DNA of 64,000 nucleotides, from the NCBI RefSeq assembly GCF_055900595.2, contig NZ_CM148325.1; one strand, 5' to 3'. The first letter of the stretch is position 1, and each line of letters starts with the position of its first letter. The notes under the pieces are model-generated. The model worked only from the letters and a program-made list of their open reading frames with translations, was not told where the DNA came from and did not search any database. The translations under genes were made by a program, and so were the position numbers. Positions 2,815 to 11,099 of this stretch are shown here, one piece after another.

Positions 2815-3429
2815 TTATCCTTCGATAAAAGCCATCCCTGTAAACGTCCGTCGCGGGTTGCCACGTTCAATCTGGTGATGGAACATTCGCCGCTGCGATT
2901 TCAGCGCCGCGCTATTTTCCTGTTGCTGTTGCTCCAGCTTCCAGGCAATCAGCAATCGCGCCAGCCGTTTGTTGGCATGTTGGCTGCGCTCTGACTGAAC
3001 CTTCACGCTAATCCCGGATGCCAGATGCGTGGCGCGTACCGCCGAGTCGGTTTTATTGACATGTTGACCGCCCGGCCCCGACGAACGCAGCGTCTCATAA
3101 TGGATCGCATCGGATTGCTCCTGCTCATCTGCAGTAAAACGCCCAATGCCCAGAAACCAGTTTTTGCGCCCATGATGAGGGCGATACGGACTCGGACAAA
3201 TCCACTGGATAGTGCCACACCAGCTTTCGCTTAGTGCCCATGCGTTGTCGCCATCAAGTGAAACCAGCGCCGAACGCAGTGTGTCAGAGTAGCGACCCGT
3301 TTCTGTTTCCAGCACCGTTACCGCGACGTCTTGTCGGGCAGCTTCTTTAATCAGCCTGTCCAGTGCCTTTTTCACTGCGAGACAACATTCTTCCGGCCCC
3401 TGAGCTGAGGAGAGTTGTAGCAAGATCAT
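2815..3429 (-). CDS. prfH: Peptide chain release factor homolog PrfH (full-length form)
   Basis: ORF contains a release-factor domain with the GGQ motif ([16 protein letters not shown]); likely start at the internal Met ([14 protein letters not shown]...) giving ~204 aa; start overlaps the rtcB stop. Confidence 0.85.
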
Positions 3430-4565
3430 CCTTTTTTCCCTCCACTGTTTTTGAGCGTCAGCACCGGACGCAGTCGCGCGACAGGAATAATTAAACCGGC
3501 CTGCACCAGACATTGCACCACACTTTCAGCCGATTTATAGGCTTGTGGCGCTTCTTCAAAGATGAGTTGTTTATCGCGACAAATTACCCGACTGCCAAGT
3601 TCAGTACGTGAGAGTTGCGTCGCCGTGTATTTCGCTGCCAGACGCCCTTTACACTCGGTGCGCCCCCATTTACGCCCTGCCCCATGCGCCAGTGAGTGAA
3701 GCGTTTTTTCGTTCGCAACAGGTTTAACCAGCCAGGAGTAATCACCGCGTGAACCGGGAATAATCACCAGACCGTTGTCATCCGGCGTAGCCCCTTTACG
3801 GTGTAACCATCCTTGTTGATCGCCGATTCGACATGCGCTAACAAAGTTATGCGCCACATCCAGAACCGAATTTCCGTTGGCCTTAACTTGTTGCATTATG
3901 CGCAAAGCGATCAGCTGGCGATTAATACGCGCAAACGCCAGCGCATCATCATGTTCCGCAATATAACTTAGCGCGTCGTCACTGCCTTCCGGCAAACCAT
4001 GATGCGAAAACGAGGCAATATGCCGCTGTAAAATAGACTGCCCTAAACCACGCGAGCCGCTATGGACCAGCAGTTGCAGATGCTGCGCATCCAGACCTGA
4101 CAGTGCAAACAGTTCCGCGTCGATGATTTGATCAATCTGTTGCAGTTCTGCAAAGTGGTTACCGCCACCGATAGAGCCAAGCGCGCAGCGCCACGGATGC
4201 TGTGCAAACGCTGACGGCAGGTTTTCCTCCAGCCAGCTTTCTTCAGCAACGTCATCCAGCGCAGATAATCGCTTTTCAAACTTATCGGCGTTGTATTTAC
4301 GCGCGAGAATATCTGTTTGCCATAGCGCCATACCGCAGCCGATATCATTGCCGACCAGTGCCGGGTAAAAACGGCCTACGGAGAAGAACGCTGCGCCAAT
4401 CGGATAGCCGCGTCCGGGGTGCAAATCTGGCATCCCCACTACGCGCTGCATGTTGGGTAAATTTGCCGTGGTGTGTAATTGTTGGATCGCTGAACTCTCG
4501 ATCCACAGGTCATCAGATGCGATGGTAAATACCGCATCGGATAAGGGACGAATATATTTGCCCAT
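3426..4565 (-). CDS. rtcB: RtcB-family RNA ligase (RtcB2-type, paired with prfH)
   Basis: 379-aa [26 protein letters not shown]...[17 protein letters not shown]... recognised as RtcB family; translationally coupled to prfH. Confidence 0.85.
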
Positions 4566-4810: not shown

Positions 4811-5263
4811 TTAATGTTGCGGTTTATATCGCATATGAAAATTAGTAAACCACGCTCCCCGGCATTCAACGCGTTGCTGCTTAACTGTCTGAAAACCATA
4901 ACGTTCAAAAAAGGGTTTTGCGGTTATGCTGGCGTCCACCGTAAGTTCGGATTCAGACTTAATCAAAGGTTTTAACAAAGCGCTGGCAACCCCACGGCGA
5001 GTATATTCAGGGTCAACAAATAACATATCGATATAATGTTCAATGCGGGAAATAAAACCAACCGGTTGTGCATTAATCACAGCAACTCGCACTTGTGATT
5101 TCGCGAGTTGCTCTTTCCAGCGAGATTCGTCAATCTGCGCCCAGGCGGCAATTTGTTGTGGTGAATAATGCTGACTGGCGGTCATCGTAACCGCTCTAAT
5201 GAAAATAGCGCATAGTTGCTGAAAATCGCAAGGCTGATAGTTTCTTATTTGTATGTTATTCAT
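4811..5263 (-). CDS. yafP: GNAT family N-acetyltransferase YafP
   Basis: 150-aa ORF recognised as YafP; start overlaps dinB stop (operon). Confidence 0.9.
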
Positions 5264-6315
5264 AATCCCAGCACCAGTTGTCTTTCCATTTGCGGATCCA
5301 GCAACGTCACATGCAGCCCCACCAGCCGCACACCGCGCCCGCCACGGCGTTCATCCCAGGTTTTACGCGCAGTGGCGATCAAGTCAGCTTTATTCAGCCG
5401 CGGCCAGACGTGTTCCTGGGTGGTTTGCTGAAAATCGTCGAACTTTAATTTCACCCCCTGGCGGGCAATCAGTAAATCAGGTTTTACCTTTGCCAGACGA
5501 CGTTCAAGTTCCGGGTACAACCGCTCGATGATCGCTTCACATTCAGACCAGTGATGAATATCTTCCGCCATGGTGCGTTCTACACCGACGGATTTTCGCA
5601 ACCTTTCGCTGTTAACGTCGCGCTCGTCAATGCCCTGGCTACGCTCCCACAAAATGCGGCCAAATTTGCCAAAGCGTTTAAGCAACGTCACCAGATCACA
5701 CTTTTGTACATCGCCACAGGTTCGTAGCCCCATCGCTTCCAGTTTTGCCGCCGAGACTTTGCCGACACCGGGAATTTTTGCCAGCGGTAAGGTTTGCAGA
5801 AATGCCGGAACTTCTGCCGGCGTAATCACAAACTGACCGTTGGGTTTATTCATGTCTGAGGCGATTTTGGCGAGAAACTTGACCGGCGCAACGCCCGCAG
5901 ACGCCGTCAGTTGCAGCTCGTTGAAGATCGTCTGGCGGATTTCCTGAGCGATAAGGGTCGCAGAGCCGTGGCAATGGACACTATCGGTGACGTCGAGATA
6001 GGCTTCATCCAGTGACAGCGGCTCAATACGCGATGTGTAGCGAGAGAAGATTTCGCGGATATGATTTGACGCTTCTTTGTAGGCGTCAAAGCGCCCTGGA
6101 AGCAAGGTGAGATGCGGACACAGTTTGAGCGCCATGCCGGTTGGCATTGCGCTACGCACGCCAAATTTACGCGCGGGATAATTGGCGGTGCTGATCACCC
6201 CCCGGCGTTCGCGGCTGCCGCCAATAGCAATAGGGATATCGCGCAGGGCGGGATTGTCGCGCATCTCCACCGCGGCGAAAAAGCAGTCCATATCCACATG
6301 AATGATTTTACGCAT
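5260..6315 (-). CDS. dinB: DNA polymerase IV (Y-family translesion polymerase)
   Basis: 351-aa [36 protein letters not shown]... recognised as DinB. Confidence 0.95.
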
Positions 6316-6385
6316 TGCTCACCTCTCAATACTGGTAAAGTATACAGTGATTTCAGAGTTTGAGAAAAGCGTAAAGATTCAGCAT

Positions 6386-7120
6386 TTAACGCGTTCGCTG
6401 CGAAAGCACCTGCTGCTTATCCAGCTTTTTCACCAGCGGCTGCACCACCTTATCCCCATGCTGACCAAAATATTGATACAACGTATCGGACGCGCTTTTG
6501 GTGAGCACCATAATCTCAATGCGCCGGTTACCCGCGCTTTGTGGGTTTTTGGCATCCAGCAGCATCTGGTCCGCCATCGCGCTTACCTGCATCACTTTAT
6601 CTTCCGGCATCCCGGCGTCTTCCAGCACCCGACGGGCCGAGAGCGCGCGGTCACCCGAAAGGTTCCAGTTGTTGTAGATATTGCTTTTATAGGCCATCGC
6701 ATCGGTATGCCCGGTAATAATAATTTTGTTGTCGAGCGAGTCGAATACCGGCGCGAGTTCCACCAGCAGCGTTTTAAAGAACGGCATAATCTTCGCGCTG
6801 CCGCGTTCAAACATATTGCGGTTCTGGTCATCTTTAATCAGCACGCGTAATCCCTGCGGGACAATCTCCATCTCCAGATTGGCTTCCATATGCGCATCGC
6901 GGGCGATGGTGTTGATACTGGTCGCCAGCTCGCCAAGCTCAGTGGCAGACTTCTTCTTCACTAGCGCCGTTTTCTCGTTGACGTCGCGGGCTTTTTTCTC
7001 CGTCTCTTCCGGCACCGCCACGGTGGCAGGTTTCGGCGGATGCGTCGGGCTGATTTTATTTAACGGCGACAGCCCGCCGCCATTGAAAATCGACTGCCCG
7101 TGCAGCGCGGCGATAATGCT
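6386..7120 (-). pseudogene. lafU: MotB-like lateral flagellar motor protein LafU, 5'-truncated remnant
   Basis: ORF has a MotB/OmpA-like C-terminal peptidoglycan-binding region but lacks the N-terminal transmembrane segment; the ORF-track N-terminus is antisense read-through into lfhA'; boundary approximate. Confidence 0.7.
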
Positions 7121-7139
7121 TTCACGCTCAGATTTACTA

Positions 7140-8855
7140 ACACTGTTGACAATCAACTTTATTGTCGTCACCAAAGGGGCCGAGCGTATTTCCGAGGTTT
7201 CTGCCCGTTTTACCCTGGACGCGATGCCCGGCAAGCAGATGGCGATTGACGCCGATCTTAACGCCGGGTTGATCAACCAGGCGCAGGCGCAGACCCGCCG
7301 CAAAGATGTTGCCAGCGAGGCCGATTTCTACGGCGCGATGGACGGGGCATCGAAGTTTGTGCGCGGGGATGCCATCGCCGGGATGATGATTCTGGCGATC
7401 AACCTGATTGGCGGCGTTTGTATCGGGATCTTCAAATACAACCTGAGCGCCGATGCCGCCTTCCAGCAGTATGTGCTGATGACCATCGGTGACGGCCTGG
7501 TGGCGCAGATCCCTTCCCTGCTGCTCTCCACCGCGGCGGCGATTATCGTCACCCGCGTCAGCGACAACGGCGATATCGCCCATGATGTGCGCCACCAGCT
7601 GCTGGCAAGCCCGTCGGTGCTCTACACCGCCACCGGGATTATGTTCGTGCTGGCGGTGGTGCCGGGAATGCCGCACTTCCCGTTCCTGATGTTCAGCGCC
7701 TTGCTTGGCTTTACCGGCTGGCGAATGAGCAAACGCCCGCAGGCGGCGGAGGCGGAAGAGAAAAGCCTCGAAACGCTGACCCGCACAATCACTGAAACCA
7801 GCGAGCAACAGGTCAGTTGGGAAACCATTCCGCTGATCGAGCCCATCAGTTTAAGCCTCGGTTACAAACTGGTGGCGCTGGTGGATAAAGCGCAGGGCAA
7901 CCCGCTCACCCAGCGTATTCGCGGCGTGCGGCAGGTGATTTCCGACGGCAACGGCGTGCTGCTGCCGGAGATCCGCATTCGCGAAAACTTCCGCCTCAAG
8001 CCCAGTCAGTACGCCATTTTCATCAACGGCATTAAGGCCGATGAAGCGGATATTCCGGCGGATAAGCTGATGGCTCTGCCCTCCAGTGAAACCTACGGTG
8101 AGATTGACGGCGTGCTGGGGAACGACCCGGCGTACGGGATGCCGGTGACCTGGATCCAGCCTGCGCAGAAAGCGAAGGCGCTGAATATGGGGTATCAGGT
8201 GATCGACAGCGCCAGCGTAATTGCCACGCATGTGAATAAGATTGTGCGCAGCTATATTCCTGATTTGTTTAACTATGACGATATTACTCAGCTGCATAAC
8301 CGTTTGTCGTCGATGGCACCGCGCCTGGCGGAGGATTTGAGTGCGGCGCTGAATTACAGCCAGTTGCTGAAAGTGTACCGGGCACTGCTGACCGAAGGCG
8401 TTTCCCTGCGCGATATCGTCACCATCGCCACCGTGCTGGTCGCCAGTAGCACCGTCACCAAAGATCATATTCTGCTGGCGGCCGATGTGCGCCTGGCACT
8501 GCGGCGCAGCATTACCCATCCGTTCGTTCGCAAGCAGGAGCTGGCGGTGTATACGCTGAATAATGAACTGGAAAATCTGCTGACCAACGTGGTGAATCAG
8601 GCGCAACAGGGCGGCAAAGTGATGCTTGATAGCGTGCCAGTGGACCCGAATATGCTCAACCAGTTCCAGAGTACGATGCCGCAGGTAAAAGAGCAGATGA
8701 AAGCGGCGGGGAAAGACCCGGTGCTGCTGGTGCCGCCGCAGCTGCGCCCGTTGCTGGCGCGTTATGCGAAGTTGTTTGCGCCGGGGTTGCATGTGCTGTC
8801 GTATAACGAAGTGCCGGATGAGCTGGAGTTGAAGATAATGGGGGCGTTGATGTAG
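7140..8855 (+). pseudogene. lfhA: FlhA-like lateral flagellar export protein LfhA, N-terminally truncated remnant
   Basis: FlhA homology begins mid-protein at NFIVVTKGAERISEVSARFTLDAMPGKQMAIDADLNAG (about nt 7146); upstream part of the 709-aa ORF is not FlhA-like; boundary approximate. Confidence 0.75.
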
Positions 8856-8856
8856 G

Positions 8857-10990
<2,134 letters not shown>

Positions 10991-11099
10991 AAGGGATGAA
11001 ACAACAGCGCCTGACGGCGCTGTGTCTGGCATGCCTGCAATCCGGGAGACTGGACCAGGAAAAAACTTGCAGGCCGTAACAGTATCTACTGTTAAAGCA

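Follow-up and report, generated by a model that had tools for sequence, protein, structure and literature searches.

Gene remnants and deletion joint

The stretch analysed here, referred to as the window, comprises 64,000 nucleotides (nt) of contig NZ_CM148325.1 (NCBI RefSeq assembly GCF_055900595.2), and all positions are given in its own numbering. Positions 6386-8855 of the window are, with near certainty, the deletion scar of the lateral flagellar gene cluster Flag-2, named fhiA-mbhA in Escherichia coli K-12, where fhiA is the lfhA pseudogene and mbhA the lafU pseudogene (PMC3032704). An earlier note, made from the letters of the window, had proposed a Flag-2 deletion scar consisting of a 5'-truncated lafU and an N-terminally truncated lfhA, and this was borne out by domain content, realignment to an intact locus, chromosomal context, the joint, RefSeq annotation and the literature; the two limits that it gave were exact and correspond to the two stop codons. 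The scar itself is an already known, textbook-level remnant, and its confirmation is nothing new. On the homologous stretch, RefSeq labels the two genes 'LafU' and 'FlhA, incomplete, missing N-terminus', and PMC6993521, citing Ren et al. 2005, gives 76 of 100 E. coli strains as devoid of Flag-2, all 76 with truncated copies.

The endpoints were determined by aligning the window with an intact Flag-2 locus, that of E. coli ST540 (L001), in which about 40 flagellar genes, lafU to lfhA (flhA), lie between dinB and rayT. Window positions 6200-7157 aligned with L001 8627-9584, and positions 7143-8910 with L001 44886-46653; the interior absent from the window, L001 9582-44897, amounts to 35,316 bp and holds the genes lafT to lfhB. 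Both genes were 5'-truncated, and no full-length motB-like or flhA-like gene was recovered on realignment. The two parental sequences overlap by 2-3 nt at the joint (Table 1), with no DNA inserted, and the joint ATC is part of an imperfect direct repeat with matches at 11 of 16 positions, the lafU copy reading CTGTTGACAATCCAC and the lfhA copy CTGATGATCATCAAC. The earlier note had placed the junction near 7100-7150, and the alignment moved it 2-4 nt past that range; its description of the genes as meeting tail to tail was wrong, the truncated 5' ends abutting head to head with the 3' ends pointing outward. The fragments are thus divergent and in direct contact, without intergenic space, and the 5' ends of both genes have been deleted together with both operon promoters. 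The chromosomal setting is that of K-12, between dinB and rayT/yafL, with rtcB, yafP and dinB on one side of the scar and a nest of insertion sequences (IS), rayT and yafL on the other.

The lafU remnant has lost 155 nt (about 52 codons), comprising the N-terminal cytoplasmic segment, the transmembrane (TM) helix and the start of the plug, and codes for the linker and the OmpA-like peptidoglycan-binding domain. The sole Pfam match of its product was PF00691 (OmpA-like C-terminal domain), with neither MotB_plug nor a TM segment, in agreement with the earlier description of a MotB-like gene lacking its TM N-terminus; intact LafU contained MotB_plug at residues 19-70 and the OmpA domain. The product covers positions 43-297 of the 297-position NCBIfam LafU model with a score above the model cutoff. 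The TM helix and the plug, which together with the OmpA-like domain make up a functional MotB/LafU stator, were missing from it. The lfhA remnant codes for the FHIPEP cytoplasmic loop, the remaining TM helices and the C-terminal cytoplasmic domain, and starts at what we take, from general FlhA topology, to be the end of TM4. Its product matched the FHIPEP and FlhA models only from profile position ~100-118 on, whereas full-length LfhA of the intact locus matched the whole of both models; against the FlhA equivalog it scored 591.6 bits, below the cutoff of 772.1, at profile positions 118-677 only. N-terminal truncation of this gene had been correctly recognised, and the loss, put at about 120 residues, is in fact 130 codons (390 nt). 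The lfhA remnant of the window aligned without gaps to 14 other alleles and has no internal stop.

Two open reading frames (ORFs) extend through the joint. The first ~50 codons of the minus-strand ORF are antisense lfhA, and its start as chosen in the style of the Prokaryotic Genome Annotation Pipeline (PGAP) is the GTG at 7171, giving the 261-aa 'LafU' that is the RefSeq coding sequence in the closest genome and in K-12. The leader of this chimeric protein reads TTIKL-IVNSVSK, TTIKL being antisense lfhA and IVNSVSK being LafU. We read the chimeric ORF as a by-product of the deletion and do not take it as evidence of a gene. For the plus-strand frame, no start codon is conserved among lineages, and the choices of gene callers differ by genus.

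Table 1. Positions in the window of the scar, of its parts and of neighbouring features.
Feature	Position	Strand	Description
lafU (mbhA) remnant	6386-7154	minus	3' 769 nt of the 924-nt gene; stop codon 6386-6388; aligns with L001 8813-9581
lfhA (fhiA) remnant	7152-8855	plus	Codons 131-697 and stop, 1704 nt; aligns with L001 44895-46598
Deletion joint	7152-7154	none	ATC common to both parents (three-way base-by-base alignment)
Retained half of predicted lafU hairpin	7138-7154	plus	Left arm in the window: TAACACTGT
Chimeric ORF	6386-7303	minus	305 codons through the joint
Open frame	6726-8855	plus	709 codons; lfhA remnant and upstream extension through antisense lafU
REP-like spacer after lfhA	8856-8910		
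IS110-family transposase gene	9102-11040		Split by IS3-family insertion
IS110 N-terminal ORF	9102-9335		
IS110 fragments	~10734-11040		
IS3-family orfB	9328-10074	minus	
IS3-family orfA	10194-10541	minus	
dinB	5260-6315		
dinB-yafP segment	4811-6315		yafP directly after dinB, stop and start codons overlapping
RtcB-family ligase gene	3426-4565 and upstream		Intact, 379 aa
Island with type VI secretion system	19414-54668		~35 kb, between yafV and tRNA-Asp/dnaQ

Frequency of the joint in E. coli

Prevalence was determined by sequence queries against 5426 complete E. coli genomes. The whole 2470-nt scar was contiguous in 4071 genomes and a 401-nt segment centred on the joint in 4086 (75.3%), in accordance with the earlier statement that the arrangement matches the known Flag-2 remnant of many E. 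coli. Its presence in the window is not due to chance. The undeleted lafU endpoint was present in 1322 genomes and the undeleted lfhA endpoint in 1291. Since 4086 and 1322 add up to 5408, which is every genome that matched the lafU endpoint query, there is in practice one deletion class besides the intact form; likewise, PMC5422975 describes Flag-2 as 'present or entirely absent' and reports no intermediates. In these searches, 15-17 of the scar matches lay in records labelled as plasmids. The joint was base-for-base the same in K-12, BL21-type strains, LF82, O157:H7, E2348/69 and E. albertii, and had the same position in the 10 E. coli scars compared.

The scar allele of the window is rare, with an identity of at least 99% in only 8 of the 5426 genomes and of 94-95% in most. 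The closest genome, that of strain Z0117EC0005 (dog), shares the IS nest, and its lfhA remnant and that of the window differ by 22 substitutions, all of them synonymous and all located within the first 800 nt. From this distribution of substitutions, the break at 800 nt evidently marks a recombination tract.

Condition of the remnants

The 1704-nt lfhA arm was aligned for 10 scars and 5 intact loci, and the ratio of non-synonymous (dN) to synonymous (dS) divergence was calculated by the Nei-Gojobori method. The 15 sequences contained no indel, and an internal stop was present only in E2348/69. The mean dN/dS of the lfhA remnant was 0.030 among scars (dS up to 0.25), compared with 0.016 between intact alleles, and that of the lafU remnant among E. 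coli scars was about 0.05 (dS up to 0.37). Between the window and K-12, dS was 0.20 for lfhA and 0.31 for lafU (0.08-0.32 for the live neighbour genes), and dN was only 0.008-0.010. If one old neutral scar had been inherited by both the window strain and K-12, dN should be approximately equal to dS; the dN observed was far lower.

Scars and intact alleles were interleaved, scars differing from each other by up to 6%, and intact alleles (97% identity) were nearer to the window than most scars were. About 19-20 good scars were further obtained from metagenomes by an exact scan for the junction pattern, two loci (L107 and L114) being discarded as noisy assemblies. Two of these scars, L100 and L101, were almost the same as intact ST540 in both arms: L100 had 10 differences in the 1704-nt lfhA arm, none of which fell in the first 504 nt, and in the 769-nt lafU arm of L101 there were 3 differences, all more than 500 nt away from the joint. 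Another scar, L110, differed from intact strain 23779 at 12 positions.

These low dN/dS values might be taken as a sign that truncated LfhA and/or LafU has remained functional under purifying selection since an old deletion, which we consider improbable. Most lineages retain open frames without indels, dN/dS stays at 0.03-0.13 even across genera and likewise for a pair of scar-bearing Atlantibacter species, the lafU remnant is intact in 29 of 29 E. coli scars, and truncated LafU scores above the NCBIfam cutoff. The absence of disrupted lafU arms is, however, only weakly significant (~2.7 expected, p ~0.07, by estimate), and lfhA carries a frameshift or stop in ~15-20% of E. coli scars. Frameshifts were found in lfhA in 4 of the good metagenomic scars and in-frame deletions in 2, and E. 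albertii has a 22-bp deletion. The newest differences, those between near-identical scars, are mainly amino-acid changes and indels, as between K-12 and scar L116 (2 non-synonymous and 0 synonymous substitutions and one 5-bp deletion). Furthermore, there is neither a conserved start codon nor a promoter nor intergenic space, the lafU product has no membrane anchor or export signal, and continued function would leave unexplained why a scar equals the native intact allele up to the joint. A search of the literature brought up nothing relevant on what lafU or lfhA might do in E. coli, and a comparison of variant classes private to scars with those private to intact alleles was uninformative with the few intact alleles sampled. 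The recent frameshifts and amino-acid changes of the E. coli remnants look neutral, and the fragments are probably pseudogenes in early decay, without present maintenance.

The joint in other genera and its native flanks

Loci of other genera were reached by a protein search with the annotated 261-aa 'LafU'. Truncated, OmpA-only LafU was found in Citrobacter (C. gillenii, C. amalonaticus, C. farmeri and one more species), Kluyvera, Atlantibacter and the unclassified Enterobacteriaceae H11S18, and all of these proteins begin with the chimeric leader TTIKL-IVNSVSK; its core, KL-IVNS, was present in 34 of 140 LafU cluster representatives. Intact LafU also occurs in Atlantibacter (A. subterraneus). 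A scan of contigs with the LfhA remnant protein was dominated by generic FlhA, in which the DAMPGKQM pattern is universal, and its useful loci were those of E. albertii and two Citrobacter. Six loci from the LafU search were fetched (K. ascorbata, A. hermannii, Atlantibacter sp., C. gillenii, C. amalonaticus and Enterobacteriaceae H11S18). All six gave a gapless alignment with the window across the joint (78-83% nt identity), shared the order yafL, lfhA', lafU', dinB, and had an lfhA remnant with an open frame of exactly 567 codons. Synonymous sites were saturated between genera (proportion of synonymous differences, pS, 0.53-0.68) with no indels in the 567 codons, dN/dS ranged from 0.03 to 0.13 in the lfhA arm and from 0.04 to 0.21 in the lafU arm, and the differences close to the joint were located at third codon positions.

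In the comparisons made, the flanks of the joint were native to the species in which it occurs. The K. ascorbata scar (L119) was 98.6% identical to an intact K. ascorbata locus (L124) over 3.8 kb, and the two were the same over the first 120 nt from the endpoint on the lafU side, a segment that holds four states distinguishing Kluyvera from E. coli (synonymous at +6, +18 and +24, and Glu-to-Asp at +27). At the protein level, scar-type and intact-type LafU arms were 98.6-100% identical within E. coli, three Kluyvera lineages and C. gillenii, whereas the next scar lineage by LafU arm was only 87-97% identical. The interior of the cluster had 76-80% nt identity between genera and was as diverged as dinB; the cluster is therefore ancestral and without recent mobility.

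The last 20-30 nt at a heterology border lie beyond the reach of crossing-over, and the scars match the intact allele of their own species up to the joint; each scar would therefore have been made from that allele, and the deletion would have arisen independently in different genera. On these sequence comparisons, we incline to the view that the joint is a hotspot at which the same deletion has been produced independently from native intact loci in different species and genera, and possibly repeatedly within E. coli. For the wider proposition, that a conserved hotspot causes the ~35-45-kb Flag-2 cluster to be lost, precise to the nucleotide, at one and the same place in five or more genera of Enterobacteriaceae, probably repeatedly within species, and that the features directing it lie inside conserved codons, we put the chances at about even.

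A single ancient event is, we think, less likely than recurrence at a hotspot. According to it, one deletion was inherited and spread by homologous recombination through the remnants and the neighbouring core genes, while exchange with intact alleles kept the remnants looking purified; a reading of this kind is said to go back to Ren et al. in 2005. We regard it as possible but on the whole doubtful. It accounts for the occurrence of one junction class only, in strict presence/absence polymorphism without intermediates (PMC5422975), for the joint common to E. coli and E. albertii, and for the mosaic arms with their obvious recombination tracts; it requires no special mechanism, in keeping with the ordinary microhomology found where the sequences cross over. 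By a rough estimate based on recombination rates in E. coli, crossovers within ~60 nt of the joint would be permitted over the time involved, and within E. coli alone a single origin remains viable. Across genera it meets several difficulties. A single origin would place the joint before the divergence of Escherichia, Citrobacter, Kluyvera and Atlantibacter, between which synonymous sites are saturated, and the 20-30 nt beside it cannot be refreshed by crossing-over, yet only codon-conserving differences are found there between genera. In Kluyvera, positions +1 to +120 from the joint are those of the native intact allele. Finally, so old a neutral remnant should be riddled with indels, whereas the 567 codons are open in 7 of 8 lineages.

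The identical joint could also be obtained without a hotspot if scar DNA had been transferred between genera and the donor flanks later replaced by native sequence, the conserved core genes dinB and yafL offering possible recombination arms. Recombination at ~80% identity is strongly suppressed by the anti-recombination activity of mismatch repair, which counts against such a transfer. In addition, native sequence extends in the arms up to 6 nt from the joint, beyond the reach of crossing-over, and interior and flanks are equally diverged between genera. We consider this the least credible of the explanations, and very improbable.

Several points weigh against recurrence at a hotspot. Its support from native flanks consists of the lafU side in one species pair (Kluyvera), pairings at the protein level elsewhere, and comparisons between different species for the lfhA side. 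The sample of intact loci comprised six E. coli genomes with five distinct alleles, two of them with both arms, and the statistics were obtained by simple counting methods, not likelihood models. One junction class in ~5400 genomes is equally predicted by a single origin. As regards the directing sequence, more than 1000 pairs of sites in lafU and lfhA equal or exceed the 11/16 matches of the repeat at the joint, an exact 11-nt repeat elsewhere is never used, the 12-nt palindrome at the lfhA endpoint (see below) folded no better than shuffled sequences, and no recombinase gene was evident in or beside the cluster in the annotation of intact loci.

Candidate mechanism

We read the deletion as an illegitimate, non-homologous recombination between lafU, at the point where the MotB-like TM helix ends on the periplasmic side, and lfhA, at the point where TM4 ends. 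The event removed ~35 kb, including ~40 flagellar genes and both operon promoters, and left two promoterless, divergent 3' gene fragments. If the joint is a hotspot, the sequences directing the breaks would lie in strongly conserved codons; as both endpoints are at the ends of TM helices, in such codons, the directing sequence would stay conserved across genera. The remnants would resemble selected genes only because each scar is young relative to the divergence of its flanks.

One candidate for the directing sequence is a stable predicted hairpin at the lafU endpoint. In intact lafU it has the form TGACGCTGT-TGACAATCC-ACAGCGTCA, with 9-nt arms and a 9-nt spacer, and the crossover falls in the loop. 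No other inverted repeat in lafU has arms of at least 8 nt, and the predicted DNA fold of the hairpin had a free energy of -10.1 kcal/mol (z = -5.9); in Kluyvera, a hairpin was predicted in a shifted register (z = -3.4). From these fold predictions, the hairpin may have a mechanistic role in the deletion. In lfhA there are two perfect 12-nt palindromes, and the crossover borders on one of them.

Other candidate causes were considered. Microhomology as a sufficient cause of the hotspot was rejected, as more than 100 pairs of sites were better than that at the joint, about 1000 tied with it, and the exact 11-nt repeat was unused. The proposal of palindromes at both endpoints was half supported, the lafU hairpin being strong and the fold of the lfhA palindrome not significant. 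A mobile interior, such as an integrating circle, was unsupported, the interior being as diverged as dinB and no integrase being annotated. RayT, the transposase associated with repetitive extragenic palindromic (REP) sequences that adjoins lfhA, was dropped as agent, as the endpoints are not REP sequences; moreover, a small ORF at that position in the Kluyvera, Citrobacter and Atlantibacter scars had no listed family of transposase type. The endpoints also differ from a site for site-specific excision, the 9-nt inverted arms in lafU facing a different, 12-nt palindrome in lfhA with 11 of 16 nt shared and no recombinase annotated.

Neighbouring features and related loci

The IS110-family transposase gene lies downstream of lfhA in a REP-rich spacer before rayT, and the same IS110/IS3 nest is annotated in Z0117EC0005. 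The spacer immediately following lfhA is REP-like, with copies scattered through the intact Flag-2 locus. The content of this spacer varies by strain, with rayT in some strains and, in its place, the toxin-antitoxin pair hicA-hicB in others (EC42405, 2013C-4282 and E2348/69). In E. albertii NBRC 107761 (L018 ~2886-3000), unrelated REP-like sequence has taken the place of the lafU remnant's 3' end and of the spacer on the dinB side, and the annotated lafU product is shorter (252 aa).

On the other side of the scar, the toxin-antitoxin pair yafN-yafO is present between dinB and yafP in K-12, ST540, LF82 and O157, and absent in the window, Z0117, R32_14_1F, E2348/69 and others. The RtcB-family ligase gene of the window is intact; next to this gene the closest genomes also have an intact prfH, and K-12 and ST540 have only fragments of both genes. 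The dinB gene is unusually far diverged from that of K-12, with a dS of 0.32 and a dN/dS of 0.004, compared with a dS of 0.08-0.19 for gpt, pepD, dpaA, yafJ, lpcA, fadE and yafV; deep allelic lineages seem to run through the whole segment from dinB to yafL.

The intact Flag-2 locus of E. coli R32_14_1F (L117 23500-31200) contains an extra cargo block with ISAs1 copies, a GNAT acetyltransferase and hypothetical proteins, and the deleted interval would therefore be longer there than in ST540; this block fits the description of a 'cargo island' in PMC6993521. Farther along the window, the island between yafV and tRNA-Asp/dnaQ holds a complete type VI secretion system, with TssM/IcmF, TssL (DotU-OmpA), TssK, TssC, ClpV, TssF, TssG, TssA/ImpA, VgrG and a PAAR-Rhs toxin. 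At the same site, K-12 has only IS and remnant DNA, and Z0117 only an ImpA fragment.

Comparison with known systems

The scar of the window is the same as the K-12 fhiA-mbhA (lfhA'-lafU') remnant in its two fragments, their divergence, the site between dinB and rayT/yafL and the joint nucleotide; it differs in allele (~94-95% identity to K-12-type scars), in having no yafNO beside dinB and in the nested IS110/IS3 downstream of lfhA. Compared with intact Flag-2 (E. coli 042, W, ST540 and R32_14_1F), its arms are the 3' ends of the terminal genes lafU and lfhA, with 94-97% identity, and the 35-45 kb between the endpoints are absent, including both 5' gene ends and every promoter. Intact Flag-2 is the homologue of the lateral flagella systems of Vibrio parahaemolyticus and Aeromonas.

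De Maayer et al. 2020 (PMC6993521) reported en bloc lfhA-lafU deletion in 531 of 4028 Enterobacterales strains, including Citrobacter, which is the same phenomenon as that found here in Citrobacter, Kluyvera, Atlantibacter and H11S18. The text available contains no report of a joint at the identical nucleotide in all genera, of species-native flanks, or of a remnant dN/dS far below 1. As far as the literature surveyed extends, the identity of the joint across genera and the 'fresh' state of the remnants have not been described.

The remnants are commonly taken as old neutral pseudogenes, and the present data make them young copies of recently functional genes, which affects their use as neutral-rate references. 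lafU-linked markers are used beside dinB in K-12 genetics. Inheritance hardly accounts for an identical joint across 35 kb that has species-native flanks in several genera. If the hotspot is real, Flag-2 would be a cluster that is switched off cleanly and time and again, not what a single ancestral accident left behind, and the selected-gene look of its 'pseudogene' remnants everywhere would be explained. It would also provide a natural, easily assayed case of a precise, recurrent large deletion with minimal homology, with a bearing on how illegitimate recombination works and on how bacteria rid themselves of costly gene clusters.

Hotspots of short-homology illegitimate recombination are known in E. 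coli from the lambda-bio junctions, and palindrome-associated deletions were reportedly described by Glickman and Ripley. The Flag-2 joint differs from hotspots of these types in that its sites are 35-45 kb apart, its direct repeat is not the best available, and only one endpoint folds significantly. It resembles them in the recurrence of an identical junction, in the overlap of a few bases, and in the position of one endpoint within a stable predicted hairpin.

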